From positions 9,534 to 73,533 of the forward strand of contig CAZSUJ010000004.1 of assembly GCA_964609925.1 (NCBI GenBank): a DNA stretch of 64,000 bases, written 5' to 3'. Under the pieces are notes generated by a model. The model saw only the letters and a list, made by a program, of their open reading frames with translations. It searched no databases and was not told where the DNA came from. Made by a program: the position numbers and the translations under genes. Position 1 is the stretch's first letter; every line of letters begins with the position of its first letter. Positions 12,281 through 51,416 of the stretch are shown piece after piece. This DNA comes from an uncultured Chthoniobacter sp. GTDB taxonomy: Bacteria; Verrucomicrobiota; Verrucomicrobiia; Chthoniobacterales; JACTMZ01.

Positions 12281-12418
12281 CAATACCGCCCCGGGGGGAG
12301 CAGCGCTGGCCTCCCGTGCGAAGAACGTCACTGGAGCGTGCCAACGGGGCGCAATCTATTAGCTCACCTAATACATGGCAAGCGCAAGAATCCCCGGCAG
12401 GACGAAGTCCAGGGCTTA

Positions 12419-32323: not shown

Positions 32324-32325
32324 GA

Positions 32326-33846: not shown

Positions 33847-33948
33847 GAAGCTCCGCGGCCGCAGGATTGGGCGGTGCGGTCCAGCCCCCTCAACGATCCC
33901 TCCGAGGGAGCGAGGCAGGACCGGGCCACTTACCCCCAAAGGCTCTAT

Positions 33949-36900
33949 TCATGGCACAACCGCGTCCACATCGAAGAAGCTGCGGTTGGTGGCCGGCACG
34001 GCGAACGCCTTGCGGGTGTAGTCGTTGGTCTGCGAAATCCCGCTCTGGTCGGCCGAGTTGGCCACAGTCACCGCCGCGTTGGTCCAAGGACCGGCGGAAA
34101 GGTTGGTCGTTGCATTCACGGAGTAGGCCACGCCAGTGTTCCTCTCGACCCAGCTGACCTCGGCGTTAGCTCCACTCTTCGTGGCACTCAGCAGGGCGGG
34201 CGAGCCCACAGCCGGGTTGCCGTCGAAGGAGAACTCCTCACCGTTGTCGAACCCGTCGCCATCCGGATCAGCCGCGGGCGCGGTATTCGTGAAGCCGGGA
34301 TAGGTGCCCTGCCAGAACGAAACCCACGAGTCGTAGGCGTTGGTCCCGCCAGACTGCACGGTGAGGACGCCCGTGGATTGGGCGAACACGTAGGTGGCCC
34401 CGTTGGTCGTGTTCGTCCAATTGCCGCCGGCGCCGCTGAAGCCATTGACGAGGAAATTCGTCCCGTAGTTCGCGACGACGTTGGTCCCCACGATGGTCCA
34501 ACTGTCGCCGCTGTTGGTCGAGGCGGCGGACAGGTCGAACTGGAAGTCGCCGTTCGCATTGAGCGTTCCGGTGCCGCTCACCCGGTTGTTCGTGCCGTTG
34601 CCGCCGACCGTGAAGGTGAGCAAGGCGTCTTCCGCCAGTGTGACCGCCCCGTCGGTGATGGTGGTGTTGCCGGCATGTGTGTTGGTGCCACGCAGCTCGA
34701 GCGTGCCGCCGGAGGTCTTGTTGAGGCCGCCGCCGCCGGTAAGGCCTTGGTTGATTTGCAGCGTGCCCGTGCCGTTGGTCTCGACGCGCACCGTGGCGGT
34801 GCCACCGGAGATCATGATCGACCCGCCGAGCACGTTGCGGCTGGTCGCCGTGGTCGTGGCCAAGGTCGCCCCGCCTGCGAGAGTGATGTTCTCGTTGTTG
34901 GTGAGGGCGTTGGTGGTGTTGTTGAAGAACGTCAGCGTGGCGTTCGAGGCGACCAAGGTGCCGAAGGCGCTGTCGCCCAGCGATCCAGCATTGTTCACGG
35001 AGGTCAGTGTGCCTTGGTCGACGTTGATCTGCCCCACGATCACGGTGCCCGGATTGATCGCCACGACGTTGGTGCCGGTCTTGGTCAGTGTGTTGGTTCC
35101 ACCGTTGACCAAGGTGCCGCTGCCTATGATGTCAATGCGGGCCGTTCCGCCTACGGAAGCATCGGAGGCCAGAGCGAGGCGCAGTCGTGTAGCGGTGGAC
35201 GTGCTGTTGTTCACCACTGCCCCCGCCCCGCCCGGGCCGTTGCCCGCGATGGTGACAACGCGCTCGGTGTTGTTCTGGCCGTTGAGGTCGAGCGTCGCGC
35301 CGCTGGCGACGGTGACGGCGTTTGATGTGCTGCCGAGAGAGTTGGAATTCGCAAGGCGCAGTGCACCGGAAGAGACGGTGGTGTTGCCTGTGTAGCCGTT
35401 TACCGCCGAAAGCGTGAGCGTGCCCACGCCGTCCTTCACGAGGGCGCCCGTGCCGGTGATCACCCCGGTGAAGTCGGCGTTGGTCGCCTGGTCGAGGTAG
35501 AAAACGCCATTGTTGGTGACGTCCCCGCCGAAGCTTTCGAGGGTGGTGCGGAGCGTGCCGCCGGAAATCGTCGTTGGCGAGGTCAGCGAATTCGAGCCGG
35601 CGAGGACCAGCGTCCCGGCGCCAGCTTTGGTCAATGCGCCGTTGGTCAGGCCGCCGTTGACGATCGCGGTGGCGGCGTTGACGGCGATCGTGCGGTTGCT
35701 GCCACCGAGATCCAGGCTGTTGGCGAACGTGAGCGTGCTGTTCGCCGTGGCGGCGTTGAGCACGAGAGTTGATGAGCCTTGGAGGAAGTTCGTTTGTCCC
35801 CATGTAAGCGCTGTCGGGCTGGAGGTGCCGCCAAGGGCCACGGTGATCGGGGCGCCGAAGGCGCTGAATCCAATGTTGGCGCTGGTCGAGTTGGTGTAGC
35901 CCACGCTGATAAGGCCAGCCCCGTCTCCAATCGAGCGGGTGATGCTCGCGCCACTTTCGAAGATGCCGCCGATAACACCACCGTTACCGAGCCGCAAAGT
36001 CGAATTGGTGGCGATGTTGACTCCATCGTTGGCCCGCAGCGTGCCCTGAGCAGTTATGATACCGTTGCTGTTGGTGTGGCTGACAGTTCCGTTGAGCACC
36101 GTGAGGGCGCCACCGGTGCCGACGAACAATGTCTGGCTCGAGACATTGAAAACGATCTTGCCATTGACAATGACCGTGCCGGCGCCATCGCCTGTCAAAC
36201 TGCCAATGCGGCCAAAGTTGCGGATCCAAAGATCGCCGTTGACGGTGGCGGAGGAGTTTGTGTTCCCGTTGTAAAGATACACGTTGCCGCCAAGACCGAT
36301 GTTGTTGGTCACGGTATTGCCGTTGAGGTCAAGGAACGCAGTATTCGTTCCGGGGTTGTTTGTTCCGACTGCGATGTTGCCCGCTCCTGCCGCCGTGCCG
36401 GAACCAAGGACCAAGCGACCGCTTTCGACCACCGTGGCGAACAACGGGATGCCGAAATTGGACTGCGTCAGATAATTGCTGATTGAACCCGTGTAACCGT
36501 TGGAGGAGTTGCTGAGAATCAGACGTCCGGGGCCGGCCTTGACCAAGCCGGCAGTGCCAAAGACCTGCGCGTCGAGGGTCACGCTTTTGTTCGTGCCCAA
36601 GGTGTTGACCGTGACGATCGGACTCGAGCCGGCCAAAGTCAGGGTGTTGTTGGTGTTGCCCCCGTTTCCGAGCGTCCAACCGGCGGCGGTGTTTGTCGCG
36701 GTGTCGCCAAAGACGAGGTTCCCGATCGTGACCGGGGCATTCAAGGTGACGGTGGAATCGTTCGTGATGTCGAGCGTGCTGAAGTTGGCCGTGTTGTTGC
36801 TGCCGCCGCCAATGACGCTGGCTTGCCAGTTCGCCGCCGTTTGCCAACTCCCGCTGGCACTACCGGCGGTGATGTTGGTCCAAGTCGCGGTGGTTTGCGC

Positions 36901-36954
36901 GAATGCGGTGGCTGCGAGGGAGAGGATCGTTGCTGCGGGGAGGAGGAGTTTCAT
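33949..36954 (-). CDS. PATR (autotransporter-associated beta-strand repeat) surface protein without barrel, ending in the TSP3-like module
   Basis: Signal MKLLLPAATILSLAATAFA. PATR head TWTNITAGSASGSWQTAANWQ...IGNLVFGD. About 800 aa of G/T/N-rich repeats containing LTKAGAGTLVL-type units. The tail is ADPDGDGFDNGEEF...RSFFDVDAVVP. Confidence 0.8.
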   Translation of the reverse strand: MKLLLPAATILSLAATAFAQTTATWTNITAGSASGSWQTAANWQASVIGGGSNNTANFSTLDITNDSTVTLNAPVTIGNLVFGDTATNTAAGWTLGNGGNTNNTLTLAGSSPIVTVNTLGTNKSVTLDAQVFGTAGLVKAGPGRLILSNSSNGYTGSISNYLTQSNFGIPLFATVVESGRLVLGSGTAAGAGNIAVGTNNPGTNTAFLDLNGNTVTNNIGLGGNVYLYNGNTNSSATVNGDLWIRNFGRIGSLTGDGAGTVIVNGKIVFNVSSQTLFVGTGGALTVLNGTVSHTNSNGIITAQGTLRANDGVNIATNSTLRLGNGGVIGGIFESGASITRSIGDGAGLISVGYTNSTSANIGFSAFGAPITVALGGTSSPTALTWGQTNFLQGSSTLVLNAATANSTLTFANSLDLGGSNRTIAVNAATAIVNGGLTNGALTKAGAGTLVLAGSNSLTSPTTISGGTLRTTLESFGGDVTNNGVFYLDQATNADFTGVITGTGALVKDGVGTLTLSAVNGYTGNTTVSSGALRLANSNSLGSTSNAVTVASGATLDLNGQNNTERVVTIAGNGPGGAGAVVNNSTSTATRLRLALASDASVGGTARIDIIGSGTLVNGGTNTLTKTGTNVVAINPGTVIVGQINVDQGTLTSVNNAGSLGDSAFGTLVASNATLTFFNNTTNALTNNENITLAGGATLATTTATSRNVLGGSIMISGGTATVRVETNGTGTLQINQGLTGGGGLNKTSGGTLELRGTNTHAGNTTITDGAVTLAEDALLTFTVGGNGTNNRVSGTGTLNANGDFQFDLSAASTNSGDSWTIVGTNVVANYGTNFLVNGFSGAGGNWTNTTNGATYVFAQSTGVLTVQSGGTNAYDSWVSFWQGTYPGFTNTAPAADPDGDGFDNGEEFSFDGNPAVGSPALLSATKSGANAEVSWVERNTGVAYSVNATTNLSAGPWTNAAVTVANSADQSGISQTNDYTRKAFAVPATNRSFFDVDAVVP
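33952..34344 (-). other. Copy D of the recurrent TSP3-like + beta-rich module (C-terminal)
   Basis: TNAYDSWVSFWQG...ADPDGDGFDNGEEFSFDGNP...LSAGPWTNA...RSFFDVDAVVP-stop. Confidence 0.6.
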
Positions 36955-36977
36955 GGAGATGGAGGGTTCAGGATTTC

Positions 36978-37010
36978 ATATCGACATGTTCTATCTGAAT
37001 TTATCAATAC
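36978..37010. promoter_or_regulatory. Operator/promoter-like inverted repeat upstream of the PATR gene
   Basis: ATATCGAC (36978-36985) - 17 nt - ATCAATAC (37003-37010) inside an AT-rich 85-nt gap. It resembles the perfect repeat at 49593-49624, matching 6/8 and 7/8 per half-site. Confidence 0.35.
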
Positions 37011-37039
37011 TATTTTGCGATGTGGCGTTTTTCAACTGT

Positions 37040-38170
37040 TCATTTGGGTTCGGGAAGGACGCGCTGCCCGCTGGCCGGGTCGAAGAGGTGAACGCGGTTG
37101 GACTGGATGCAGAAGCGCTGTTTGGAGCCGTCCCCGCGGTGATCGGCCTCGGCGTGGCTGCGGCTGATGAGTGTGTGCTGTCCGGTGTTGAGGTAAAAGT
37201 AGGTTTCGGCCCCCATTGGCTCTATGAGCTCCACGAGCGCCTCAAACGATCCGGCGCGGGGCTCGGTGCCTCCGCGCGCCGGTTCGCAGTGCTCGGGGCG
37301 GACGCCGAGCGTGACTTCCTTTCCGGCGAGGGCGGCGTAGCCGGGCGGGTTGCCAAGTTCCACCCGGACCGGGCCGCCGCGGGCTTCGCGGAACACGAGT
37401 CCGGCGGCTGCGGCCTCGACCTGCCCTTCAATGAAATTCATCGGCGGGCTGCCGAGAAATCCAGCCACGAACAGATTTACCGGCTCGTGGTAAATGCGCA
37501 GAGGTTCGTTCGCCTGCTGGATGACACCGTCTTTCATCACCACGATGCGGGTGCCCATGGTCATGGCCTCCACCTGATCGTGGGTCACGTAGATCATCGT
37601 CGCCTGCAGTTTCTGGTGCAGCTTGGTGATTTCCGTCCGCATCTGGACGCGCATTTTGGCGTCAAGGTTCGAGAGCGGTTCGTCAAAAAGGAAGACCTTG
37701 GGCTGCCGGACGATGGCACGCCCGACCGCGACCCGCTGCCGCTGACCGCCGCTGAGCGCCTTGGGCTTGCGGTCGAGCAGCGCCTCGATACCGAGAACTG
37801 CGGCCGCATCCATCACCCGCTGCCGGATCTCCGCGCGGGGGAAACGTCGCAACTTCAGTCCGAATGCCATGTTGTCGAAGACCGACATGTGCGGATAGAG
37901 CGCGTAATTCTGGAACACCATGGCGATGTCACGGTCCTTGGGCGGCACGTCGTTGACCACCCGGCCGTCGATGGAAACTTCGCCCCGCGAAATTTCCTCC
38001 AGGCCGGCGATCATGCGCAGGGTCGTCGACTTGCCGCAGCCGGACGGCCCGACGAAGACAACGAACTCGCGGTCGGTGATATCGAGGTTGAAATCGCGGA
38101 CGGCGGTGACGCCCTCACCTTTCTCGCCCTCATAGATCTTGCAGACGTTACGCAGGCTGACTTGGGACAT
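37040..38170 (-). CDS. Carbohydrate ABC transporter ATP-binding protein (MalK/UgpC/MsmX type)
   Basis: Walker [10 protein letters not shown], signature LSGGQRQR, Walker [10 protein letters not shown], and a C-terminal TOBE-like regulatory domain. It overlaps the upstream gene by 23 nt. Confidence 0.9.
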
Positions 38171-39836
38171 GGGCGGGGCTTTCGATGGTGTTGTTCTCGA
38201 CGACAGCGGCCGGGCAGCCTTCTACGTCGAAGGGCGGCGCGCCGGCGTGCTGCGCCGGGTAGTTGGCGGAAGGAAGGATGCGGTTGCCGCGGATGACGAG
38301 ACCGCTGACACCGCGGGCGCGGATGATGCGTGGATCGAAGGCGCGGAAGAGGTTGTCCTCGATGCGCACGTTGCGGTGGTAGTCGCTACCGGGCTGGTGC
38401 TCCTCCTTGACGCCCGGGCTGATCTGGATCTGCGCCTTGGCCCAGATGCCATATTTGCAGTCCTCGAATGTGTTGCGCCGGATGAGGATGTCGCGCACGG
38501 CACCGCTTTCGAACCAGTGGTTCGCGTCGCCTTCGATGAGGATGGCGGCTCCGGCGGTGTGGAATGTGTTCTCCTCGACAACGACACGTCCGGGCACGGA
38601 GAGAAGGAATCCGCGGGCGCGGTTGCCGCGGCAGCGGCAGTGGCGGATCGTGACATCGGCCGACCAGGTCAGGTTGCCCATGGCGTCCCCCACCCGCGGC
38701 GGAACAGGAGGAGCCTCCTCGAGGCCAATGCGCAGAAACTCGCTGTTGAGGCGTTGCACGGAAGCAGCGCGTGCCGTGTGCTTCGTGGCCAAAGTGTCGC
38801 GATCGACCAGTTCAAGCAGTTCTCCGGATTCGGCGAAACCGACACCCCGCTGCTGGCGGTGGGACAGGCGGACCTCGAACTCAGCGGGACCGAGGACCCG
38901 CGTGATCTGGGTGTAGAGGCCGTGGACATTCGTGGCGTCGTCCAGTTGGTTCTCGAACACGCAATCTTCCAAGACAACGGACCCCCGGCAGTTCACGAAA
39001 TGGGTCGCGTCGGCCGTGGTCGAAACCATGCGCGAGCCGTCTTCCGGTGGCGCAACCCGCAACCTTTCGACGCGGATGCCTTCGCACCGCTGGGCGATCA
39101 GACCCATCGCGCCCGCGTGGTGGATCGTGACGTCTTGGATCTCCAGCCGGCGGCTGTTCTGCGCGGCGACGGCGGGGAAATCGCGGCGCTCGCTGACCAA
39201 AGCGAGCACGTTGCCGGGTTGCGGACGCGGCTCGCGGAAGTCCGCGTGCAAACGGACCCGCCGCGGACCGGTCTCCTCGGCACGGCAGCGGCGGCCGATG
39301 TTGAAATTGTCAAAGACTTGGAAAGCCGTCTCGCGGCGGACCGAGTCGAATTCGAGGATATTGCGGATCACGAAGGTCTCCGGCGACGGGCCGAAAAGGA
39401 GGCGTCCGTCGCGCACCTCGAACGGGAACCCCTCCGGAACCTCGATCTCCACGCCGCTTTCGTCGCTCTCGCGCACGATCCCCTCACCGTGGAAGGGAAC
39501 GGCCCAGTCCACTCGAAAACCCGAGAGCCGCACCCCGTCGCAACGGTCGAGGTGGAACGGAATCAGGCCGCCGTGGAAAACGAACTCCGCACCGTCCGCC
39601 TCCACGGCGAAGTCGCGGCGATCCTCGAGGAGGAAGACTATGCGCTTGAGCCCCTCATCGTTGTTCGAGATGAAGAGATACTTCTCTTCCGCGCGGTCGG
39701 GGTGAAAGTCGTAGCGCCCGGGCGCGAAGCGGAGCCCGGCACAATCCTTGCTTTCGAGTGCCTCGCGCACGAGAGGCGTGAAGTCGGAGGCGCCGGGATG
39801 GAATTCGTGGAGTTTATTCATAATGTGAATTTTCAA
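38148..39836 (-). CDS. Cytoplasmic right-handed beta-helix glycosidase-like protein (GH110-like, tentative)
   Basis: No signal peptide. [74 protein letters not shown], and later PbH1-type turns ([27 protein letters not shown]). The GH110 label rests on my recollection of that family's N-terminal beta-barrel plus beta-helix layout. Confidence 0.55.
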
Positions 39837-39861
39837 TTGTGCGTGTCATCCGTGACGCTTT

Positions 39862-41220
39862 TCATGATCCAAAGCCCTGCTTGGAGCGCAGCGCTTCGGC
39901 TCTGACCCGCAGCTGCGGTTCCCGCTCGATGTTGCGCTGGATCGCGCGGTTGACCTCGGCGGCGAGTTGCCGCGCAGCCTCCTCGGGCGTGACCACCCGG
40001 TTTTCCACGCGTCCGAGCATCTCGATGATCCAGCGCTGGACTTGCGCCGCATCGACAAAAGGGCTCGTGTCGGGCGGTTGCGCATCGCGGATCGCATCGA
40101 GAAAAACCTGATGGAACGTCTCATCCGGCACCGCCTTGTTGACGAGGGCCGCGCCGTCGGGCGCCATCTCCGGATTGGGGGGCAGGGAATCGCCATCCTC
40201 GATGATCTTGCGGCCGTATTCGGGGGTGGCAAGGTAGGAGAGGAAGGCCACCGCCAGTTCGGGGTGCCGGCTGCGGGCATTGACCGCAACTCCGCGCGTC
40301 CGCGTGTAGCCCCGCGAAGGCTGACCGGGCAGCCGCGGCAGCCGAACGGCGGCCAGATTCCCCTGCAGTTCTGGGAAATTTGCCGCCTGCACGGTGAACC
40401 AACGACCGATCATGATCATGGCCGCTTCACCCGAAGAGAACCAGTTGATGCCTCCCGATCCCCAGCCTCCCTGGCTCGACATGGCCACCGACTGCTCCGG
40501 CGTGGGCAACACGCGGTGCTTGAACATGAGGTCGTGGTAATGCTGGAACGCGGCCACAGCCTCGGGCGAGTCGAGCAGGCAGGTCATTCCGTCCTCGCTG
40601 AAATACCGCGCTCCGTGCGTGACCAGCAGGTCGGCAAAAAGATCCGGCGGAGACCAATTGGCGACCGGAATATGCGTTTTTCCACTCTTCGAAGGTGTCT
40701 CCGCAATGGCGCGCCCCGCAGCAACAAAATCGTCCCACGTCCAGTCGGCCTGCGGATAAGGCACCCCGTGGTCATCGAAGATCGCCTTGTTGTAGAGCAC
40801 CGCCTGCACGTTGACGTTGGCCGGGAAGCGATATTGCCGGCCGTCCACGAAAAGGGCGTGACGGATGGCGGGAAAAGTCTTCGACGCATCGAACCCCTGC
40901 TTCGCGGCCACGTCGGTGAGATCCAGAAGCAACCCGGCCTGCGCCATGCTCTGCATGAGGGTCTCCGGAATGTCCATGAGGTCCGGGCCGACGCCGGTGG
41001 CGCATTGCACGAGCAGTTTGGTGGCGTCACCCGTTTCTGTGGCCAAACGCACTCCTGGATGGGCCGCCGTGAAACCGGCCGTCTGACGGTCGCGCGCGGG
41101 ATTCGGGTCGGTGGCCCAACGGAGCACCACCTCGTTTCCGTCGCTGGAGCGTAAGGTGCCCATGGCGATGGCATAGAGGCCGAGGAAGACGGCGAACGCA
41201 GCGAGGAAGACGTATTTCAC
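39862..41220 (-). CDS. ABC transporter extracellular solute-binding protein (family 1, sugar)
   Basis: The GTG at 41220 overlaps the upstream stop (GTGA). It gives (M)KYVFLAAFAVFLGLYAIA as anchor/signal, followed by a typical SBP_bac_1-like body (LRWATDPNP..., GPDLMDI..., YNKAIFDDHGVPYP..., GRWF). The rest of ORF 39862..41745 is discarded. Confidence 0.8.
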   Translation of the reverse strand: MKYVFLAAFAVFLGLYAIAMGTLRSSDGNEVVLRWATDPNPARDRQTAGFTAAHPGVRLATETGDATKLLVQCATGVGPDLMDIPETLMQSMAQAGLLLDLTDVAAKQGFDASKTFPAIRHALFVDGRQYRFPANVNVQAVLYNKAIFDDHGVPYPQADWTWDDFVAAGRAIAETPSKSGKTHIPVANWSPPDLFADLLVTHGARYFSEDGMTCLLDSPEAVAAFQHYHDLMFKHRVLPTPEQSVAMSSQGGWGSGGINWFSSGEAAMIMIGRWFTVQAANFPELQGNLAAVRLPRLPGQPSRGYTRTRGVAVNARSRHPELAVAFLSYLATPEYGRKIIEDGDSLPPNPEMAPDGAALVNKAVPDETFHQVFLDAIRDAQPPDTSPFVDAAQVQRWIIEMLGRVENRVVTPEEAARQLAAEVNRAIQRNIEREPQLRVRAEALRSKQGFGS

Positions 41221-42074
41221 CCCTTGACCCCCCCGAGTTGCAGGCCTTTCACGAGGAACTTCTGGAACATCACGAAAATGATGATCAGCGGCACGATGTT
41301 CATCACCGTGGCCGCCATGATCAGCTCGGTCTGGCGCCCGTAGGAGCTGTCGAGTCGCAGCATGCCCACAGGCATGGTGAAAAGCTGCTCGTCCTGCAGC
41401 ATGACCAACGGCCAGAAAAACGACTGGTAAGCCCCGAGGAAGGTGAGGATGCAGAGTGCAATCAAGCCTGGCCGCGACAGCGGCACGATCACGTCCCAGA
41501 AGATCCGCCAGTGCCCGGCCCCGTCGATCGTGGCCGCCTCGTCGAGCGAGGGCGGGATCGAAAGCATGAACTGCCGCAGCAGGAACGTTCCGAAGGCGCT
41601 GAAGGCTGCGGGAATGATCAAGCCGTGGTAGGTGTTGACAAAACCGAACGTCACCATGAGCTGGAAATTCGGGATCATGGTGACCACGCCGGGGATCATC
41701 ATGGTGCCGAGGTAGAGGAGGAACACCTTGTCGCGACCGGGCCACTGGATGCGCGAGAACGCGTAGGCGGCCATGGCGCTGGTAAGCACCTGGAAGAGCG
41801 TGATGCCCATGGCCACGAAGATGCTGTTGAAATACCAGCGGCCGAATTTGACACCGAGAAAGACGCCGGTCACCGGGTCGGGCTTGAGATCGAGGACGAC
41901 GGGGTAGTTCAGCGCTGTCGGTTCGCGCGGCACGATGTGCGCCTGCTCGACTTCGGCGCGGGTCTTGAACGACGCACAGACCATCCAGACGAAGGGCGCC
42001 GAGAGCGCGAAGCCGATGGCGCAGAGCAGAAAGAAGCGGGGGATGGAGCGTGCGGGGAGCATGGTCTCAGACAT
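41217..42074 (-). CDS. Carbohydrate ABC transporter permease (MalG/UgpE-like)
   Basis: Six hydrophobic segments and an EAA-type loop LDEAATIDGAGHWRIFWDVIVPLSRPG. There is an 8-nt overlap with the upstream permease. Confidence 0.85.
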   Translation of the reverse strand: MSETMLPARSIPRFFLLCAIGFALSAPFVWMVCASFKTRAEVEQAHIVPREPTALNYPVVLDLKPDPVTGVFLGVKFGRWYFNSIFVAMGITLFQVLTSAMAAYAFSRIQWPGRDKVFLLYLGTMMIPGVVTMIPNFQLMVTFGFVNTYHGLIIPAAFSAFGTFLLRQFMLSIPPSLDEAATIDGAGHWRIFWDVIVPLSRPGLIALCILTFLGAYQSFFWPLVMLQDEQLFTMPVGMLRLDSSYGRQTELIMAATVMNIVPLIIIFVMFQKFLVKGLQLGGVKG

Positions 42075-43503
42075 CCAGGCTGCGGCCGAAGCGCCAGTTG
42101 AAGGCGGTAATGGAGAAAAGCATGGCGAACAGGACCCAGGATACGGCGGCGGCGTAGCCGAAGTTCAGGTCCTGGAAGCCGACTGTGTAAATATAGTAGC
42201 TCAGCGTGGTGGTCGCCCCCGCCGGGCCGCCGCCGGTCATGACTCGCGCCTGCTCAAACCCGCCCTGCAATCCGCCGATGATCGACACGATCGAGATGAA
42301 GAAGGTCGTGGGCGCGAGCTGCGGCCAAGTGACATTGACAAAGCGCTGCCAGCGGTTGGCCCCGTCGATCTCCGCGGCCTCGGTGAGTTCGACCGGAACA
42401 TTCGACAACGCCGCGAGGTAAAGCAGCATGTTGGTGCCGCCGATGGCGGTCCAGAACCCCATGATCATGAGCGAGGGCTTGGCCAACTCGATGCTGGCCA
42501 GCCACTGCGGCAACTCCGATGCCTCGAGCCCCGTTAGGGCAGAGAGCATGGCATTGATCGGCCCGGTCTGCGGGTTGTAGAGCGCTTTCCACAGGATCAT
42601 GAGCGCCACTCCCGAGGTGAAGGCGGGCAGGTAGAAGATCGTCCGGAACGACACCACGTTGAACGCGAGGCCGAGCCCGGCGATGACCCACAAAACAGCA
42701 GCCAGCAACGCGGCATCGCGGAACCCCGCCGCCCAGAGCAGAGCCGCCAGTCCGAGTCCGCTGACCACGCAGAGCCCCGCAGCCGGCCAGGCCCGCCCCT
42801 TTTTCACCGGCAGAGAGTCATTCAACAGGATCGCCAAAACCAAGGAACCCGCCACGGAAAAAGGCAACGCGAGCATCATGTAAACGGTGTTGTAGAGATA
42901 ATGCCAAAACCGGGGGTCGTTCGCCTCGTAGGCGCTCCACATCGCGCTGTGCAAGAAGACGAGTCCGGCCGAACCCGCCACCACCGCCACGCCCGGCAGC
43001 AGGCCCGCCCGCGGCGCCGTTTCATGCTCGCCGGGCTTGTTGTCCCAGAGCATCCAGCCCAGCACCGAAAAAACCACGGCCACAATCAACAGGCTGTGGT
43101 GCGCGCCGGCCCCGACCGCTCCGGCGCCGATCGCCAGCGAAGCGACGAAGAACGATGCGGCGCCACCGCGACCGCAGCGCACGCCGCTCAGCCCCATCCA
43201 TACCGCCCCGATCACCCCGGCCAGCACAAGCAGCACGCTGCCGCAATAGGCGGCGATGACCAGCGGCGCGCCCGCGCCGATCGCCGAAAAGCCGAGCGCA
43301 TCCTCGAAGTTCCGCAGCCCGACAAACTCACGGGGCACGGACGGCTTCAAAGTCCAGTTGGTGAAGGCCATTCCCAGCGAGAGGACCACGGGGAACAAGG
43401 TGAACAGGAAGAAGCCCCCGAAATTCGGCAGCAGAAAACCGAAGACCGCAGCCGGCGGGCCCTTGGGGCGCCGCGGGCGAACTGGTCTGCCGCTGGTGCT
43501 CAT
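42067..43503 (-). CDS. Carbohydrate ABC transporter permease (MalF/UgpA-like) with two extra hydrophobic insertions
   Basis: The ATG at 43503 overlaps the upstream stop (ATGA). EAA loop LTEAAEIDGANRWQRFVNVTWPQLAP. The canonical FVGLRNFEDALGF and NDPRFWHYLYNT blocks are separated by ~120 hydrophobic residues. Confidence 0.8.
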   Translation of the reverse strand: MSTSGRPVRPRRPKGPPAAVFGFLLPNFGGFFLFTLFPVVLSLGMAFTNWTLKPSVPREFVGLRNFEDALGFSAIGAGAPLVIAAYCGSVLLVLAGVIGAVWMGLSGVRCGRGGAASFFVASLAIGAGAVGAGAHHSLLIVAVVFSVLGWMLWDNKPGEHETAPRAGLLPGVAVVAGSAGLVFLHSAMWSAYEANDPRFWHYLYNTVYMMLALPFSVAGSLVLAILLNDSLPVKKGRAWPAAGLCVVSGLGLAALLWAAGFRDAALLAAVLWVIAGLGLAFNVVSFRTIFYLPAFTSGVALMILWKALYNPQTGPINAMLSALTGLEASELPQWLASIELAKPSLMIMGFWTAIGGTNMLLYLAALSNVPVELTEAAEIDGANRWQRFVNVTWPQLAPTTFFISIVSIIGGLQGGFEQARVMTGGGPAGATTTLSYYIYTVGFQDLNFGYAAAVSWVLFAMLFSITAFNWRFGRSLDV

Positions 43504-46500
43504 GGCGCAACCTCCGGCTCGATTTTGATCTTCATCACCGCTTGCACCCCGTTGGCTCCCCAAGATCCGATCTCCCAAGGGTAGAGCGACTTGGCCGGGT
43601 CGGGGGACACCACGTTGTTGTCCTCGATGAGTCCGCGGATCGAAGTCAGGAGCAGGCCCGGGGACGCCCCGCCGTCGATACGGTTATTGCGCAAGGTGAT
43701 GTTGCTGAAAGCTCCGGCCGGCGAGATCGTCCCGTCCCCGCCGGCGGCGAGAACAGCGACGCCCATGCCGCCACCCTCGGTGATCAAGTTGTCAGCAATC
43801 ACAAGGTTGTCGGCCAGACCCGCTTCGAGCCACCAGTATTCCGGCGCGATGTAGACGGCGGTCATGCGCGCGCCCTCGATGTGGTTGCCCGTGATCTCGC
43901 CTTGGCCGGCCTTGACGAGAATGCCGCGCGAGCGGTTTTGTCCGACGTGGCAGTTGCGGATGATGAAGCCGCTGCCGATGGCGCCTGCATCGCAGATGAG
44001 GGTTCCGGGGACGATATCCCCCACGGCAGCGTCCAAGGTGACCAGAAAACCGTCCTCCATCGCCGTTCGGCCGAGGTCGCCATTGAACTTCTGCTCAAGG
44101 AGCATGGCGCGTTCCTCGGGAGTGGCCGGTCCGTCGTCGACGACGGAAACGACCCGGCGATTATCCGGCCTCAGCCCGCTCCTGGTGAAAAGTTGGACGT
44201 CGTCGCCGGGTTGCAGGGTCATGCCGGATTTCGCCAGCACGCGCAGGGCGGCCCCCTCCACGCGGGTGATGTAGTGAAAGTCGCCGTTGATCGCGATGGC
44301 GTCGTCGCCCATGTGGAAGGCCGAGCAACCGTCATAGACCGGCCCCCTCCGCGCGTTCTTCGAGTGGAACGCATCCGCGTTGAGCGAACGAAGCCGCCGG
44401 TGCTCCCGCGAGCGCAAATCGTCGGTCGGCTCCCGCCGCTCGACCCGGCATTTGATGTAGCGGGATCCCTCGCAGCCGTTCTCGAGAAAACCGAAGCTGT
44501 TGCTCGCGTGCAGAGTGACCCTCTCCATGACCAGCCCCTTGCTTCCGGTTGCGTAGATGGTGTGGGGCATGCTGCCGCCCGGCGCGTAACTCGTCTTGAT
44601 CACGGCAATGTCGCCGATCTGCTCGTTTGCGTAAGCCAGGTTGGACGATGACTTGGTCAATACGGCCCGCATGGGTCCACTTGGCTCGCACAGCGTGCTG
44701 TAATACGTCATGCGTCCGCGCAGGCTGCCGGTGGCGGGATCGAAAACTTCCACGGACCCGGTTGACGTTCCCGGCTCCGGGTAGCCCTCGAGAATTTCCA
44801 CCTCGAGGCGTGATGCGTCAGCCGAGATGGAGGTGATGCGCCCCTGCGTGAATGGCAAGGGGTCGTAGTCGATGGTCAGGCCGCGGATCGTGACATTCTC
44901 GCAGCCCTCGATGGTGATCGCCCGGGTAGTTTCCGTGCAGACCATCTCCACCTGATCGGCGATGATCTCGGTGTCCTTCACACCCCGCAGGAGGAGGTGC
45001 TGCCGGCTCGAGGGCCGGACCCGATAGCGGCCCGGCGGTATTACAATCCGTTTTTCGCCGGCCGCCACCCGCGTAGCGATGAACGTGGGCAACCACGCCG
45101 TGTCCTCCACCGGGGTCGGACCCGGCGTGGCAATGACCGTGCCGACCCGGTAGAATGCGGTGTCGGTCGCGGGGACAACGAATTCCTTGCGGTGGTAATC
45201 CGCCGGCATGGGGATGCCTTCCTGGTTGCGTGAATTGGAAATCGTCACGCCGGCGGTGACCCACGGGCCGGTGTTCAAGTTGGTCGTCGTTTGCACCAGA
45301 TAACTCACGCCGCCGGGCGGGTTGTTGCGCGCGATGAAGCTGAAGACCAGATTCTCACCGTTGCCCGTCGCGATTAGCACGGCTCCGTCCGCCGACGTTG
45401 GGTTGCCGCCGAAGGCGAACTCGGCTTCGTTGTTGAGAAGGTCTCCATCGGCGTTGTCCACGGCCGCGGTGCTTCTGAACCCCGCAGCCTCGCTCTGCCA
45501 AAGCCCGACCCAATAAGCGTAGTTGTTCGTCACGGGAGCCTGCACAACCCTCAAAACGCTGTTGGACTGGGCGAACACGTAGCTGATGCCGTTGGCTGCG
45601 TTCGTCCATTTGCCGTCGCCGCCATTGAAGCCGCGGACGAGAAAATTCGCGCCGTAGGTGTTGGTCAGATTTCCGGTCAGGATGGTCCAACTGTCGCCCA
45701 CGCGGGTCGAGGCACCGGTGAGGTCGAAATCGAACTCCCCATCGATGCTGGTTGCGCCTGTGCCGCCCAAGGTGTTGTTCGTGCCGTTGCCGCCGATGAG
45801 GAAGCGCAGCGAGCCTCCGGAAACGAGGTTGATGGCACCTTCCTCCACCAGGGTGTTGCCGGTGTGGCTGCTGTTTCCTCGCAACTCCAGTGTGCCGGAG
45901 CCGGTTTTGTTGAGATGACCGGCACCGGTGACGGCCCCGCCGAGAATCAAGGTGCCCGTGCCCCGGGGATCGACGCGCACCGAGGCAGTGCCCGGGCTCA
46001 AGGTGATGCTACCGTCGAGGATGTTGGGGCTGGTGGCAAGTGTGCCGGCCAGTTCAGCGCCGTCCGCGAGGGTGATGTCCTCGCGGTTGCTGATGGCCGA
46101 GCCGCTGCTGTTGAAGAACTGCAGACTGGCGTTGGAGGCAACAAGTGTGCCGAAGTTTGTGTCGCCGAGGGCGGTTCCGCTGTTGACCACGACCACAGCC
46201 CCCCGGTTGAGGAGGAGGCTGCCCATCGAGGTCACACCAGTATTGATGATGAACGAATTGGTTCCGACTTTGGTCAGGGTGTTGGTGCCGGCATCGATCA
46301 CCGTGCCGCCAAACGAGGTGTCGATCCGCGCCGTGCCGCCGAGCGACGCATTCGTGGCGAGGACGAGGCGAAGGCCCGTGGCGGAATTGGTGCCACGGTT
46401 GACCAGCGCGGCACTGCCGCCTACACCCCTGCCGCTGATTGTGACGGTCTCCCCGCCGATGTTGAAGCCGTTCAGATCCAAGGTTGCTCCGGCCTCAACC

Positions 46501-46847
46501 GTGGTGCCATCGGCGATCGCACCCAGGGCGTTGGTCTGGCCCACACGGAGCACGCCCTGCGAGACGGTTGTGACGCCGTTGTAGGTGTTCGGTGCGGCCA
46601 GGACCAAAGTTCCCGCTCCGGTCTTGGTCAGGCCGCCCGTTCCTGTGCTGTTGGAAACCACTCCGGTCATGGTTGCTGTCTGGGTTGGAACGCTGACCGT
46701 GAGGATCGAGCCGTTGAGGTCGATCGCATTGGTGTAAACCAAGTTCGTGCTGTTCGTCGGCGGGCTGAGCACGAGATTCGTCGACGCCTGCACGATGCAA
46801 GCGGAGCCGAGCAGGGCAGCCAAAAGAAGGAGGGTGCGGGGAAGCAT
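43500..46847 (-). CDS. Secreted chimeric protein: PATR region + TSP3-like module + right-handed beta-helix enzyme domain
   Basis: The ATG at 46847 gives the signal MLPRTLLLLAALLGSACIVQA. The N-terminal ~590 aa is collinear with the C-terminal part of 33949..36954. The C-terminal ~520 aa is collinear with 46936..48741 (IVIPPGRYRVRPS..., LTIDYDPLPFTQGRITSIS..., SLNADAFHSKNARRGP..., MGDDAIAINGDFH...). Confidence 0.75.
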   Translation of the reverse strand: MLPRTLLLLAALLGSACIVQASTNLVLSPPTNSTNLVYTNAIDLNGSILTVSVPTQTATMTGVVSNSTGTGGLTKTGAGTLVLAAPNTYNGVTTVSQGVLRVGQTNALGAIADGTTVEAGATLDLNGFNIGGETVTISGRGVGGSAALVNRGTNSATGLRLVLATNASLGGTARIDTSFGGTVIDAGTNTLTKVGTNSFIINTGVTSMGSLLLNRGAVVVVNSGTALGDTNFGTLVASNASLQFFNSSGSAISNREDITLADGAELAGTLATSPNILDGSITLSPGTASVRVDPRGTGTLILGGAVTGAGHLNKTGSGTLELRGNSSHTGNTLVEEGAINLVSGGSLRFLIGGNGTNNTLGGTGATSIDGEFDFDLTGASTRVGDSWTILTGNLTNTYGANFLVRGFNGGDGKWTNAANGISYVFAQSNSVLRVVQAPVTNNYAYWVGLWQSEAAGFRSTAAVDNADGDLLNNEAEFAFGGNPTSADGAVLIATGNGENLVFSFIARNNPPGGVSYLVQTTTNLNTGPWVTAGVTISNSRNQEGIPMPADYHRKEFVVPATDTAFYRVGTVIATPGPTPVEDTAWLPTFIATRVAAGEKRIVIPPGRYRVRPSSRQHLLLRGVKDTEIIADQVEMVCTETTRAITIEGCENVTIRGLTIDYDPLPFTQGRITSISADASRLEVEILEGYPEPGTSTGSVEVFDPATGSLRGRMTYYSTLCEPSGPMRAVLTKSSSNLAYANEQIGDIAVIKTSYAPGGSMPHTIYATGSKGLVMERVTLHASNSFGFLENGCEGSRYIKCRVERREPTDDLRSREHRRLRSLNADAFHSKNARRGPVYDGCSAFHMGDDAIAINGDFHYITRVEGAALRVLAKSGMTLQPGDDVQLFTRSGLRPDNRRVVSVVDDGPATPEERAMLLEQKFNGDLGRTAMEDGFLVTLDAAVGDIVPGTLICDAGAIGSGFIIRNCHVGQNRSRGILVKAGQGEITGNHIEGARMTAVYIAPEYWWLEAGLADNLVIADNLITEGGGMGVAVLAAGGDGTISPAGAFSNITLRNNRIDGGASPGLLLTSIRGLIEDNNVVSPDPAKSLYPWEIGSWGANGVQAVMKIKIEPEVAP
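45126..45530 (-). other. Copy E of the recurrent TSP3-like + beta-rich module (internal, at the fusion junction)
   Basis: TNNYAYWVGLWQS...DNADGDLLNNEAEFAFGGNP...LNTGPWVTA...TAFYRVGTVIAT, followed by the linker PGPTPVEDT. Confidence 0.6.
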
Positions 46848-46935
46848 CTGCAGCAATCGAAGCGGACGATTTGCATGATGGCGCGCACAGGCGGAATTCT
46901 TCGTTGGCCTCCATGCGGGATTCACCGGGCGTCCC

Positions 46936-48741
46936 TCACGGCGCGGCGACCACCGGTTCGACGTTGACCTGCATGACCGGTTGAACTCCATTCCGGCCCC
47001 AAGGCCCGACTTGCCGCGGATGGAGGGCCATGTCCGGGTCGGGTTCGATGACGTTGTCTGCTTCGACCAGGCTGCGCACCGAGGTGACCAGAAGCCCGGG
47101 GCTCGGCCCGCCTTTGACGGAGTTGCCGGTGATGCTGATGTTATTGAAGGTTCCGGCCGGGGAGATGATGCCGGCTTCCCTGCCGACGGAAATCACGGCG
47201 ATGCCCATGCCCCGGCCCTCGGAGATGCGGTTGCGGGCGATCACGAGATTGTCCGACATGCCGGCCTCGAGCCACCAGTATTCCGGTGTGACAAGGATGG
47301 AGGTCATGAGTGAGCCGGTGATTTCGTTGTCCGTGATCTCGCCGCGCCCCGCTTTGACAAGGATGCCTCGCGAGCGGTTGTGTCCGAGGCGGCAATGGCG
47401 GATGGCGAATCCGTTGCCAATGCCGTCGGAATCGCAAACCATGGTGCCGAGCCCCACGCCCTCCACCGGTTCCTCAAGCACGATGCGGTAGGCGTCGTTG
47501 AGACCGTCGCGGCGGATGTCGGGATAGAGGTTGCGGGACATGACGTCCTTGCGCTCGTCCTCGGTGATCTTGCCGTCGGGCGTGACCGAGACAACGCGCC
47601 GGTCGGGCAGGCGCGTGCCGTCGGGGTTGAGGAATTGAACGGCGTCGCCCGCGCGGATTTGCATCACGCGTTTAGCCAGCACGCGGAGTTCCGCGCCCTT
47701 GGCTTCGGTGACGAAGTGAAAGTCCCCATTGATGGCGATGGCGTCATCGCCCATGAAGAATGCGCTGCAGTGCTCGTAGGTCGGGCCGCGCCGCGCGTTC
47801 TTCGAGTGGTAGGCGTCGGCGTTCATCGAGCGAAGGCGTGGCATCTCGCGCACCACGGGGTCGTGCTCGGGCGCGCGGCGGTCCACCCGGCAGCGGATGT
47901 AGCGCGAGTTGTTGCAACTGTTCTCGAAGAATCCGAAGGTCGGTCCGGCATAGAGCGTGACATCCTCAAAGACCAACCCCTCGCTGTCCGTCGCCATGAT
48001 CGCGTGGGGCTGCCTGCCGCCCGGGGCATAGGTCACCGAGATCACGGCAATGTCCCCGACCTTCTCGATGGCGAACTCCTCGGTGGCGCTCCGCTTTGTG
48101 ATGACGGCCCGCATGGAGTCCTCCATCGAGGTGGTTGCACCGAAGTGCGTGGTGCGCTCGCGCAAACGGCCGGTGGCCGGGTCGAAAATCTCCACCGAGC
48201 CGATAATCTCGCTGTTGCCCGGTTCAGCGTAGCCGTCGAGGATTTCAACGGTCAGGCGCGAGGTGTCCTCCGAAATCTCCACAATGCGCCCCTGCGTGAA
48301 CGGGAGGGGATCGTAGTCGATGGTGAGGCCCCTGATCGTGAGATTCTGGCAGTTCTCGATGGTGACGGCACGCGTGGTTTCGGTGCAGACCATCTCGACC
48401 CCTTCCATGACAAGCGTCACGTCCTGAAGCCCCGCGAGCCGCAGATGCTCGCCGTTTTCCGGTTCGACGCGGTAGCGTCCGGGGGGCACGACAATCGTCT
48501 TTTCGCCGGCTGCCAAGGCGTCTGCGATGATCCCCCGCAAATCGGCCAGAACCTCCTCAGGGGCCGGTCTCCCGGGGGAAGGAGTGACTGAGGACGCAGA
48601 GGGGGCTTCGGCTGTTGCTGCCGCCGCGGCGGGAGGGTTGGCCTCGGCCTGACGCGCGGGTTGCGGCGTCGGCCGGCAGGAGGCAGAGGTCATGGCAAGC
48701 AGACCTGCGATAAGAAGATAATGGCGGGTGGTCGTGTTCAT
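46936..48741 (-). CDS. Right-handed beta-helix enzyme (GH110-like, tentative), probable lipoprotein
   Basis: The ATG at 48741 gives MNTTTRHYLLIAGLLAMTSASC, then an Ala/Pro-rich linker. Also IVVPPGRYRVEPENGEHLRL, LTIDYDPLPFTQGRIVEIS, SMNADAYHSKNARRGP, MGDDAIAINGDFH and PbH1-like turns (RHCRLGHNRSRGILVKAGRGEITDNEI). Confidence 0.7.
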   Translation of the reverse strand: MNTTTRHYLLIAGLLAMTSASCRPTPQPARQAEANPPAAAAATAEAPSASSVTPSPGRPAPEEVLADLRGIIADALAAGEKTIVVPPGRYRVEPENGEHLRLAGLQDVTLVMEGVEMVCTETTRAVTIENCQNLTIRGLTIDYDPLPFTQGRIVEISEDTSRLTVEILDGYAEPGNSEIIGSVEIFDPATGRLRERTTHFGATTSMEDSMRAVITKRSATEEFAIEKVGDIAVISVTYAPGGRQPHAIMATDSEGLVFEDVTLYAGPTFGFFENSCNNSRYIRCRVDRRAPEHDPVVREMPRLRSMNADAYHSKNARRGPTYEHCSAFFMGDDAIAINGDFHFVTEAKGAELRVLAKRVMQIRAGDAVQFLNPDGTRLPDRRVVSVTPDGKITEDERKDVMSRNLYPDIRRDGLNDAYRIVLEEPVEGVGLGTMVCDSDGIGNGFAIRHCRLGHNRSRGILVKAGRGEITDNEITGSLMTSILVTPEYWWLEAGMSDNLVIARNRISEGRGMGIAVISVGREAGIISPAGTFNNISITGNSVKGGPSPGLLVTSVRSLVEADNVIEPDPDMALHPRQVGPWGRNGVQPVMQVNVEPVVAAP

Positions 48742-48749
48742 GAGCTGGC

Positions 48750-49571
48750 TCAAAATTGTCCGTTGCAGAATTTCGTGCGCTTCTGCTGCTGGCTGCCGGT
48801 TGGCACAAGTTCCTCGGGCATTTTGGCCCACTCCTCGGCCGTGTGGGCCGAGATGCTGCCGTCAGCCCAGAGCACGTTGCCCCTTCCGTTATGGCGCGTG
48901 GCGAACGCCCTGCCCTCATTTGACTCCGAGGCGCTCGGCGTGAACGTCTCGGCGGATCCCCCGTAGAAGTTGTTTTGAAAAACCATGTCGATCAGCACGG
49001 GCAACTTGCTCGGACGCGACACCGCCACGATGCGATCCACGCTGTTTCCATTGTTACGGATCGAATCCCGGTTGCTGTTGAGCTGTGCGTTGTATCCGTA
49101 GTGCATCGGATAGCGGGGGTCGGCGGCAGTGGATTCGGGCATCCGAGCCCAAGACGTTTGGCCGGTTGGAGAGGTAGCCGGGGCGCCGGGGCATACGAAA
49201 ACTTCGCGACTCTTTCCCACATACGGCCAGATGTCCACCAGCCAGCCCATGGACGCCCCTGACCCAGCCGGGAGCGGCGGAGTCCAAGTGCCGCCGCCGT
49301 CACCCCAGCCGCCACGGGGAAACGTGCCGTTGTTGTCAGCCGCGAACGATGCGACGGCGGCACCGATAGACTTCATGTTGGCCATGCACTTCGCGGAAGC
49401 GCCGCGGCCGAGCATGCTCTGCGCTGTAGGAATCGCCAACGCAGCGAGGACTGCGATGATCGCAACCACCGCGAGCAGTTCCATGAGGCTGAAACCGCGG
49501 TTGTCGGGACCGCAGGTTCCAACGGTGAGGCCGAATCGCAAACCATGCCGATGAGGGAGGGGGGAGGACAT
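48750..49571 (-). CDS. Prepilin-type N-terminal cleavage/methylation protein with an H-X9-DG C-terminal motif
   Basis: ...DNRGFSLMELLAVVAIIAVLAALAIP is the class-III signal. The C-terminal TRHNGRGNVLWADGSISAHT fits H-X9-DG exactly. It is the first gene of the minus-strand block, with an 8-nt gap to the next gene. Confidence 0.8.
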   Translation of the reverse strand: MSSPLPHRHGLRFGLTVGTCGPDNRGFSLMELLAVVAIIAVLAALAIPTAQSMLGRGASAKCMANMKSIGAAVASFAADNNGTFPRGGWGDGGGTWTPPLPAGSGASMGWLVDIWPYVGKSREVFVCPGAPATSPTGQTSWARMPESTAADPRYPMHYGYNAQLNSNRDSIRNNGNSVDRIVAVSRPSKLPVLIDMVFQNNFYGGSAETFTPSASESNEGRAFATRHNGRGNVLWADGSISAHTAEEWAKMPEELVPTGSQQQKRTKFCNGQF

Positions 49572-49592
49572 GCTGATGTGATGTTTTTTAAT

Positions 49593-49624
49593 GTATTGAC
49601 ATGATTTGATGGCTGCGTCAATAC
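49593..49624. promoter_or_regulatory. Perfect 8-bp inverted repeat in the divergent promoter region (operator and/or face-to-face promoters)
   Basis: GTATTGAC (49593-49600) - 16 nt - GTCAATAC (49617-49624). Each arm contains a TTGAC(A/G) -35-like hexamer for one direction and an AATAC(T/A) -10-like element for the other. A second small palindrome, TTGTATCACAA, lies at 49630-49640 just before the regulator ATG. Confidence 0.5.
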
Positions 49625-49647
49625 TGCTTTTGTATCACAATGAAGTC

Positions 49648-50799: not shown

Positions 50800-51416
50800 A
50801 ACTCACCGTGACCTCCGCCGCCGTTGGCACCATCCTTGCCTTGGCCTTCCCCGCGAAAGCCGTCGACGGTCTCCTGCCCAACCCCTCCTTTGAGGAGATG
50901 ACTGCGGGGCGACCACTCGGTTTCAGGGTGTTCCCGAGCCCAGACGATGCCCAAGGCGACTTTTACGTTCTCGAAGGGACCGAGGGTGACACCACCCATA
51001 CTGGCCGTCGCGCCTTGCAGTTTCACTTTCCAGAGGGTGCCGACATCGCGCAGGTGGCATGGACAGCCGACCCAGCAACAGGGGGGTGCGTGGTGCAGAC
51101 TGGGGGCTACAAATGCAGTTTTTGGATCAAGGCGGAGGGGATGCGGCCCGGCTTCCACGTCTGGGTAGCCGCAAATGGCTACGGCGAAGGCAAGAAACCC
51201 CTGGAGAAAATCGCCCGCAGTGAATACCTCAACGCCGCAGAGCTAGCCAACGGAGACTGGAAGCGGGTCGAGTTCACATTTGATGTTCTCACGGAGGGCG
51301 GCATCCAGCGGGTCGCGCCGTCGGTCGTCTTCAAGACCAGCCCCGACGCCCTGATCGAGCACGTCCCATCCGACACGCGGATCCTCGTGGATGACCTTCA
51401 GATCGAGGCACAGTAA
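50796..51416 (+). CDS. Small secreted CBM4/9-like (jelly-roll) protein
   Basis: ATGA overlap with the regulator stop. Signal MKLTVTSAAVGTILALAFPAKA, then LLPNPSFEEM...YKCSFWIKAEG...DDLQIEAQ, the pattern of carbohydrate-binding CBM_4_9-type modules. Confidence 0.5.
   Translation: MKLTVTSAAVGTILALAFPAKAVDGLLPNPSFEEMTAGRPLGFRVFPSPDDAQGDFYVLEGTEGDTTHTGRRALQFHFPEGADIAQVAWTADPATGGCVVQTGGYKCSFWIKAEGMRPGFHVWVAANGYGEGKKPLEKIARSEYLNAAELANGDWKRVEFTFDVLTEGGIQRVAPSVVFKTSPDALIEHVPSDTRILVDDLQIEAQ

Follow-up and report, generated by a model that had tools for sequence, protein, structure and literature searches.

A PATR stalk joined in frame to a GH110-like enzyme in a glycan operon of an uncultured Chthoniobacter: a fairly probable case of old duplication and fusion

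Structures of glycoside hydrolase family 110 (GH110) have been solved for PdGH110B (7JW4/7JWF), GH110A (9BEH/9BEV), AgaBb (8YK1-3), PpaGal (9I4F) and an Akkermansia enzyme (8PVS). The PdGH110B report names Asp344 as the catalytic acid and Asp321 and Asp345 as the bases (PMC7939477). A predicted distant relative of these enzymes makes up the second half of the product of gene A, the subject of this report, which lies in a stretch of 64,000 nucleotides (hereafter the window) of contig CAZSUJ010000004.1 from an uncultured Chthoniobacter sp. (assembly GCA_964609925.1) and whose first half encodes a PATR protein. The host group of the operon that bears gene A is that of uncultured soil or freshwater Verrucomicrobia of the Chthoniobacterales type. 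Modular shuffling is commonplace in carbohydrate-active enzymes (CAZymes), and anchored modular CAZymes, such as the SusG-type lipoproteins of Bacteroidota polysaccharide utilization loci (PULs) and proteins with the C-terminal domain (CTD) of the type IX secretion system (T9SS), likewise combine an enzyme from a regulator-controlled locus with display or targeting domains. Unlike a Bacteroidota PUL, the locus of A uses an ATP-binding cassette (ABC) importer with no SusC/D pair, and its display element would be a PATR stalk. PATR repeats (PF12951/TIGR02601) are themselves known from surface-exposed passenger domains; A, its neighbour B (a stand-alone PATR protein) and their relatives differ from such proteins in having no autotransporter beta-barrel, their ends being a two-sandwich module or a PEP-CTERM motif, and, among the proteins seen, A and its fusion orthologues alone carry that module internally, with an enzyme after it. 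A last likeness is to Rosetta-stone fusions of operon neighbours, since relatives keep the components of A as separate genes within one operon, and in an Akkermansia metagenome-assembled genome (MAG) the two are adjacent and overlap (ATGA). In contrast to that pattern, both B and C, the latter a stand-alone GH110-like lipoprotein, are retained beside the fusion, which argues for duplication plus fusion and not for a simple merger.

The domain architecture of gene A is new, its parts are already known, and so is its type of locus. Taken as a whole, the gene is best explained as encoding a secreted, modular GH110-like hydrolase of a glycan operon, derived from an old duplication and a fusion, a reading that we regard as fairly probable. 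Its uninterrupted open reading frame (ORF) occupies 43500..46991 of the minus strand, and the Met at 46847 yields a product of 1115 amino acids that opens with a classic signal peptide. The aligned signal peptides of A and its three known orthologues share no conserved Cys, so the signal is probably of the signal peptidase I type and A, unlike C, does not look like a lipoprotein. Pfam finds PATR (E 2.9e-14) followed by Beta_helix (E 4e-8), and domain searches and alignments agree in making A a chimera of two parts, a PATR stalk N-terminally and a beta-helix enzyme C-terminally, as the preliminary description of this DNA had proposed.

Each half closely resembles a neighbouring gene. When either half is compared with the whole window (tblastn), its best paralogue is by far B or C, respectively (identical to proteins P0005 and P0142); a third, distant beta-helix paralogue at 38148-39836 is 24% identical to the enzyme half and to C. 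In BLASTP alignments, residues 14-572 of A match residues 445-1000 of B, that is, 556 residues of B, at 50% identity over 563 positions (11 gaps, E 7e-132), and residues 571-1114 match residues 52-599 of C at 57% identity over 548 positions (E 0). The collinearity claimed beforehand for both halves is thereby borne out, and the motifs then listed (ATLDLNG, GGTARID, GTNTLTK, LNKTGSGTLELRG, YVFAQS and PGPTPVEDT) all stand where expected. At the DNA level, identity is 68% over 1470 bp between A and C and 67% over 1004 bp between A and B; the stretch at 44830-44960, singled out earlier as similar to C, is 77% identical to 48278-48408, an offset of 2 nucleotides from the coordinates first given. 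The junction was likewise correctly placed after the final strand of the module and before a Pro/Thr linker. B stops at ...FFDVDAVVP, while the aligned ...FYRVGTVIA of A runs on into TPGPTPVEDT, after which A aligns with C downstream of the signal peptide and low-complexity linker of the latter. The Pro-rich linker of A aligns with the end of this low-complexity linker, and the break lies inside the former linker.

The age of the fusion is set by its orthologues. A search of 5.8 billion proteins returned the full-length orthologues P0001 (70% identity), P0002 (65%) and P0003 (61%), with the B family next. Both halves are spanned by a single 50%-identity cluster among 1.84 billion representatives, and by one of 185,579 species genomes, a Chthoniobacterales MAG. 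The 90%-identity cluster of A (P0381/P0382) is represented by a 41-residue fragment, and homology searches of the clustered database therefore miss A and its nearest relatives. Loci L047 and L042, considered as further fusions, were rejected as adjacent genes or tblastn over-extension. Directly upstream of the fusion, each of the three relatives has a stand-alone gene of this enzyme family: an orthologue of C in L001 and L005, and in L004 a gene (P0121) of the type of the enzyme half of A. Such a pair of upstream enzyme gene and fusion was also seen in L006. Contig L001 (73 kb) preserves the gene order of the window throughout the operon, with C, then A, then the permeases, the GH110 gene and, at the same operon position as in the window, a downstream orthologue of B. 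In all four fusions the junction falls at one alignment position, ...F[YF]R[VI]..., followed by 8-15 Pro-rich residues and LP..I, which implies one fusion event before the lineages split; and since the same fusion, the same junction and the upstream enzyme gene recur in three other assemblies, the duplications and the fusion predate that split. Between the window and L001 the enzyme half of A is 72% identical, C 71%, the first permease 74% and the binding protein 72%, a divergence equal to that of the flanking genes, as vertical descent predicts. These observations, which answer the earlier call for a synteny check, point to an old fusion of single origin and not to a recent local assembly.

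Profile searches and structure prediction make the enzyme half a divergent homologue of GH110. A single-sequence search against the PDB is marginal (E 0.008 over 120 amino acids). A profile of 57 family members, however, reaches the GH110 structures among PDB sequences at E 2.5e-13 with partial coverage, and hhalign aligns the enzyme family with the GH110 of the operon at 99.7% probability (E 3.6e-25, 475 columns, 24% identity). The AlphaFold2 (AF2) model of this half has a predicted local distance difference test score (pLDDT) of 94.9. Its top 15 Foldseek matches in the PDB are all GH110 and cover every solved GH110 (E 1e-22 to 1e-26, template modelling score 0.64-0.76), with alignments of ~570-610 columns that extend over the full length, and the next fold follows at E 6e-7. 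The predicted structure contains the hallmark of the GH110 fold, a right-handed beta-helix with two inserted beta-barrel domains, at a sequence identity to the solved GH110s of merely 14-18%. Asp344, Asp321 and Asp345 of PdGH110B align with Asp848, Asp825 and Asp849 of A, which are invariant in the 57 family members and in the four fusions; the Trp platform (W486), E488, R451 and R453, of which W486, E488 and R453 belong to the -1 subsite, correspond to the conserved W1006, E1008, R972 and R974. From these correspondences, A is most likely an inverting exo-glycosidase, whose target would be an alpha-linked, galactose-like sugar in a glycan carrying sulfate and/or acetyl groups.

Enzymes of the type of C and of the second half of A form a separate, large and uncharacterised clade of more than 1100 matches, mostly lipoproteins, in Verrucomicrobiota, Planctomycetota and others. 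Members elsewhere carry T9SS CTD, Laminin_G_3, fn3 or AXE1 domains. The metagenomic proteins P0245, P0251 and P0338, for example, join the GH110-like domain to AXE1-type esterase domains in other lineages, and these fusions, together with AXE1 genes in the locus and beside B-like PATR genes (L091, L092), suggest an acetylated substrate. One metagenomic protein, P0254 (1367 amino acids), carries a pair of FHA domains and a Ser/Thr kinase domain ahead of its GH110-like domain, which is odd for an enzyme of extracellular type.

The first half of A is recognised as PATR well above threshold, by PF12951 at 53.2 bits (cut-off 27; two stretches, the best at residues 73-102) and by TIGR02601 at 60.2 bits (cut-off 19.85, E 1e-16), and, with two repeats that score, this half reaches 50-57% identity to PATR proteins of the operon-associated kind. 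The autotransporter beta-barrel (PF03797) has no match in A or B, and NCBIfam autotransporter matches fall far below their cut-offs. A ends with its enzyme domain and B with the sandwich module; a PEP-CTERM motif, a transmembrane helix and a basic tail are absent from both. The module of A (residues 341-573) consists, in the AF2 model (pLDDT 81), of two beta-sandwiches, connected through a helix and a degenerate DxDxDG loop (DNADGD). Foldseek places this model among generic Ig/FN3-like folds, with no informative match and no significant likeness to a carbohydrate-binding module (CBM), the best hit being to cytokine-receptor Ig domains at E 0.006. Among 41 carrier proteins fetched, the module lies 6 or fewer residues from the C-terminus in 37, and the sole exceptions are the four fusions, in which it is internal. 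In the close homologues P0007, P0011 and P0014 a PEP-CTERM motif takes its place, which suggests a localisation role for the module.

The fusion also replaced the means of attachment seen elsewhere in the enzyme family. Nearly all stand-alone members, C included, begin with a hydrophobic segment, a Cys and then a Pro/Ala/Ser/Thr linker of 20-60 residues. In C the signal peptide is followed by Cys22, conserved across the family, and by a Pro/Ala/Ser linker; its box (TSAS/C), as read from the sequence, is atypical. The fusions have, in place of lipobox and flexible linker, a signal peptide, the PATR helix, the module and a short Pro-rich linker. Judged by this exchange of parts, the unit of PATR helix and module may serve display or localisation, and the fusion may have swapped one tether for another; the PATR part of A could be a tether, a spacer or a glycan-binding arm. 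Literature searches yielded no relevant publication on PATR proteins in glycan loci of Verrucomicrobia.

Separate phylogenies of the two halves, as the preliminary description had recommended, gave unequal answers. For the enzyme half, neighbour-joining trees of 82 and 33 family members recover a fusion clade (100%) and a C clade (100%), which come out as sisters at 88-91% whichever of three distance corrections is applied. In more distant Chthoniobacterales the position of C, behind the same regulator and DUF1559 gene, is occupied by one gene only. With the sister clades, this makes tandem duplication of the upstream gene the simplest origin of the enzyme half. The earlier expectation that the halves would be closest to these neighbours fails for the enzyme half by raw identity, which is 57% to C and 59-61% to family members that are neither sisters nor neighbours, and holds for it in the trees; raw identity is misleading here, since C diverged faster. 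Divergence after the duplication was indeed asymmetric, C being 53-56% identical to the ancestral-type gene of related genomes and the fused copy (43503-45077) 56-60%.

The PATR half is less easily traced. When the outgroups are distant, fusions and B family form one group at 100%. Once the closer, operon-associated PATR proteins P0007, P0010, P0011 and P0014 are added, support falls to 51-66% in the helix region, and the module region places B away from A. Identity tells the same story: in the helix A shares 55-57% of residues with the B family and 55-59% with those four proteins, and in the module, where identities run at 50-54%, the unrelated PATR proteins P0009, P0012 and P0016 reach 54% and are as close as B. 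B is thus the best full-length collinear match of this half, as had been claimed, with other PATR proteins equally close to its helix and module parts, and the trees do not resolve B as its sister. B-like PATR genes occur within the operon or next to it in L001 and L091; in L092 they stand among related genes for sulfatases, SASA and AXE1. An operon-type PATR gene was thus the donor. In an Akkermansia sp. MAG (GFS_3381, L068:7943-12630), a gene for a 936-residue PATR protein with module overlaps one for a 626-residue GH110-like lipoprotein by ATGA, the two being unfused; from such a state a single in-frame deletion would create a fusion of this kind.

A separate observation concerns P0121 (L004:2311-4110), which lies beside the fusion P0001 (4107-7514). 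It is an enzyme of lipoprotein type, placed in the fusion clade at a position basal to the four fusions, and is neither an orthologue of C nor the sister of the adjacent P0001. It may descend from a surviving unfused intermediate copy. Recent gene conversion from the neighbouring fusion was considered and rejected, because A and P0001 group to the exclusion of P0121 with 98% bootstrap support.

Other origins for A have to be set against old duplication and fusion. The gene could be an artefact or in decay, through mis-assembly or a frameshift that joins two genes, or with one half non-functional. Its sequence is MAG-derived, its DxDxDG motif is degenerate, and the module changes fastest among the fusions (47-66% identity, as against 59-66% for the helix and 68-74% for the enzyme half). 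Yet the 1115-residue product is identical in the NCBI annotation and in an independent Logan read assembly, with the same neighbours there, so that A is not an artefact; frame and junction are kept in four lineages and the catalytic and family-invariant residues are all retained, and decay is accordingly most improbable. Recent assembly in this genome from copies of the present neighbours B and C, as first proposed, is very hard to credit too. The halves do match B and C best within the window, and C is directly adjacent; but DNA identity to both is merely 67-68%, three other lineages carry fusions of 61-70% identity whose junction is the same, each with its own upstream enzyme gene and, in L001, an orthologue of B, and the enzyme half is 69-74% identical to those of the other fusions as against 57% to C. 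The orthologues effectively refute a recent local chimera. What stands of the original proposal is duplication plus fusion in kind; its timing does not, the events being older than the lineage split, and naming B as the PATR donor was over-specific. An unlikely but more substantial alternative makes A a mobile cassette that passes between related members of the Chthoniobacterales when their conserved flanks (C and permease) undergo homologous recombination. Its distribution is patchy: A is present in the window, L001, L004 and L005, and the operon is without it in L090, L087/L088 and L089. L090 has flanking DNA 87-92% identical to the window on both sides, where collinearity breaks off with the stop codon of C (46936) and sets in again at 43475, ~91 nucleotides (L090:4123-4213) standing in place of 3.46 kb (43476-46935), and the boundaries of this gap are almost exactly those of the A coding sequence. 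Against a cassette, A diverges between the window and L001 as its flanking genes do, its tree does not conflict with that of C for shared taxa, and the flanks hold no mobile-element genes or repeats; the operon of L090 is unsplit, with a 58-nucleotide spacer homologous to the C-A spacer of the window, which is equally compatible with deletion. The absences require at least two losses on the tree, or cassette exchange via the conserved flanks, and losses are favoured because the divergence of A matches that of its flanks. Loss by recombination between C and the enzyme half of A, leaving a chimera, was rejected for L090, where P0145 is C-like over its full length and the C-type downstream spacer is kept.

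If old duplication and fusion account for the gene, the role of its first half can still be read otherwise. The PATR helix and module might be a substrate-targeting arm, binding glycan or acting as an adhesin in the manner of a CBM on a released enzyme, instead of a tether or spacer. This is possible, if on the unlikely side. It would suit the lack of a recognisable anchor in A, the lectin-like or Ig-like accessory domains (Laminin_G_3, fn3) of other family members, the beta-sandwich make-up of the module, and the standing of B-like PATR proteins as conserved operon members, as binding proteins of the locus would be. The module has no significant CBM similarity, however; PATR repeats are known from passenger domains exposed at the surface and are not known from CBMs; and the PEP-CTERM motif in the place of the module in close homologues speaks for localisation. 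A bolder proposal, which we consider doubtful, is that enzymes of the C and A type form a new glycoside hydrolase family or a deep GH110 subfamily, with an activity other than alpha-1,3-galactosidase that is linked to deacetylation and desulfation, and that PATR plus module is a third display mode, interchangeable with lipid anchor and PEP-CTERM. Should PATR plus module be such a display mode, a module otherwise strictly C-terminal would work internally and could not be a terminal sorting signal.

Several observations weigh against a secreted GH110-like hydrolase with a PATR stalk, derived as proposed. A has no recognised anchor, with beta-barrel, PEP-CTERM and lipobox all absent, and could simply be released. 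Three of seven -1 subsite residues of PdGH110B (N348, R265 and E480) are unmatched in the alignment and N85 falls outside the aligned region, so the specificity of A may differ from that of an alpha-1,3-galactosidase; the Pfam models of the GH110 barrels, PF23763 and PF23764 (GLAA-B), give no match in A or C. Near relatives lack A, which the pathway can thus do without. The trees were built by neighbour-joining from corrected p-distances instead of by maximum likelihood, and their key sister node has 88-91% support, not 100%. The PATR half belongs to the operon-associated subfamily of B and is not traceable to B specifically, and P0121 complicates a simple two-step history.

With these reservations, the history of A may be sketched as follows. 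A lipoprotein enzyme gene, ancestrally present as one copy at the operon head, would have been duplicated in tandem, and one copy would have lost its lipobox and flexible linker. This copy would then have been joined in frame behind a copy of the 3' part of an operon-type PATR gene, corresponding to the last ~556 residues of a B-like protein, and a new signal peptide placed in front of the PATR part, so that a lipid tether was exchanged for a rigid protein stalk. All this would have happened once, before the four known carrier lineages diverged; since then A would have stayed under constraint in part of the lineages, and close relatives would have lost it cleanly or had it swapped out. Its product would work with the canonical GH110, the sulfatases, the AXE1 esterase and the ABC importer of the operon. 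If so, A exemplifies the rewiring of enzyme display in glycan degraders without PULs of the Bacteroidota type, from lipid anchor to PATR stalk within one operon, and gives a handle on the role of a module that ends many PATR proteins. It would also point to an uncharacterised GH110-like family of more than 1000 members, repeatedly fused to AXE1, as a target for the enzymology of sulfated or acetylated alpha-galactans. As domain shuffling goes, A is a tidy but ordinary case, and current ideas are not overturned.

Table 1. Features of gene A and of the surrounding operon (window coordinates)
Feature	Position	Strand	Evidence
Gene A, fusion protein, 1115 aa	43500..46847, stop codon included	minus	intact ORF; PATR and Beta_helix Pfam matches
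Signal peptide of A (MLPRTLLLLAALLGSACIVQA/ST)	46782..46847	minus	sequence and alignment of four fusions
PATR beta-helix 'stalk' region of A, residues ~23-340	45828..46781	minus	PF12951, TIGR02601
Normally C-terminal module of A, residues 341-573, ends FYRVGTVI	45129..45827	minus	AF2 model
Fusion junction and Pro-rich linker (ATPGPTPVEDTAWLPTF)	45078..45128	minus	position common to all four fusions
GH110-like catalytic domain (predicted), residues 591-1115	43503..45077	minus	AF2, Foldseek, hhalign, invariant Asp
Candidate catalytic Asp825 in NADAFHS	44361-44381	minus	
Candidate catalytic Asp848/Asp849 in MGDDAIA	44292-44312	minus	
Catalytic-domain motif NRSRG	43923-43937	minus	
Catalytic-domain motif PEYWWLEAG	43818-43844	minus	
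Gene B, stand-alone 1001-aa PATR protein ending with module; window paralogue of N half of A	33949..36954	minus	50% over 563 aa; PATR E 4.5e-21
Module in gene B	33949-~34650	minus	
Gene C, stand-alone GH110-like lipoprotein; tandem paralogue of enzyme half of A	46936..48741	minus	57% to A 571-1114
DUF1559/N-methyl pseudopilin-like gene, operon head	48750-49571	minus	Pfam
Divergent GntR/LacI-type regulator	49606-50799	plus	Pfam
ABC permeases	~42067-43506 and 41217-42074	minus	Pfam BPD_transp_1
Sugar-binding protein	~39862-41220	minus	Pfam SBP_bac_1
Canonical GH110 (alpha-1,3-galactosidase family), inside importer span	38148..39836	minus	PDB 7jw4 E 7.6e-105; Pfam GLAA-B barrel I and II
MalK-type ATPase	37040-38170	minus	Pfam ABC_tran, OB_MalK, TOBE_2
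Sulfatase	32326-33939	minus	Pfam
AXE1-type esterase	31292-32608	minus	Pfam
Sulfatase	29748-31253	minus	Pfam
GH36/raffinose-synthase-like	27691-29751	minus	Pfam

The locus around A is a glycan-utilisation operon of the ABC-importer kind (Table 1). A minus-strand run from 49571 to at least 27691 comprises, in order, the DUF1559 gene, C, A, two permeases, the binding protein, the GH110, the MalK-type ATPase, B, a sulfatase, AXE1, a second sulfatase and the GH36-like gene. The stop codon of A overlaps the permease start (ATGA), and a scan of 33000-51000 for promoters and terminators gave nothing above shuffled expectation that would divide the operon. No SusC or SusD domain was found among the window genes scanned, uptake being by the binding-protein-dependent ABC importer. 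Sulfatases and glycosidases are numerous in the remainder of the window too. This setting, with its sulfatases, resembles that of the lambda-carrageenan GH110 loci (PMC7939477; PMC12549532). The DUF1559 gene and the GntR/LacI-type regulator head the operon in L001, L087, L089, L090, L091 and L093 as well, and the former, a gene of prepilin-type N-methyl kind, does so in every related locus examined.

Some details of the neighbourhood may be added. The starts of the importer genes were adjusted by comparison with L001 and L090; the binding-protein ORF at 39862-41745 is over-extended by ~175 codons into the permease gene, its true start being near 41220. A DUF4886 gene, absent from the window, stands between the binding protein and the GH110 in L001 (11751-12683), L089 and L091. 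Farther off on the minus strand, a 2834-residue ORF (12419-20923) has a weak GH81 C-terminal domain as its sole domain match, and it lies beside an OprB-type porin gene (10997-12331) and a gene for a 1617-residue protein with PATR, PKD and M12-peptidase domains (21320-26173).

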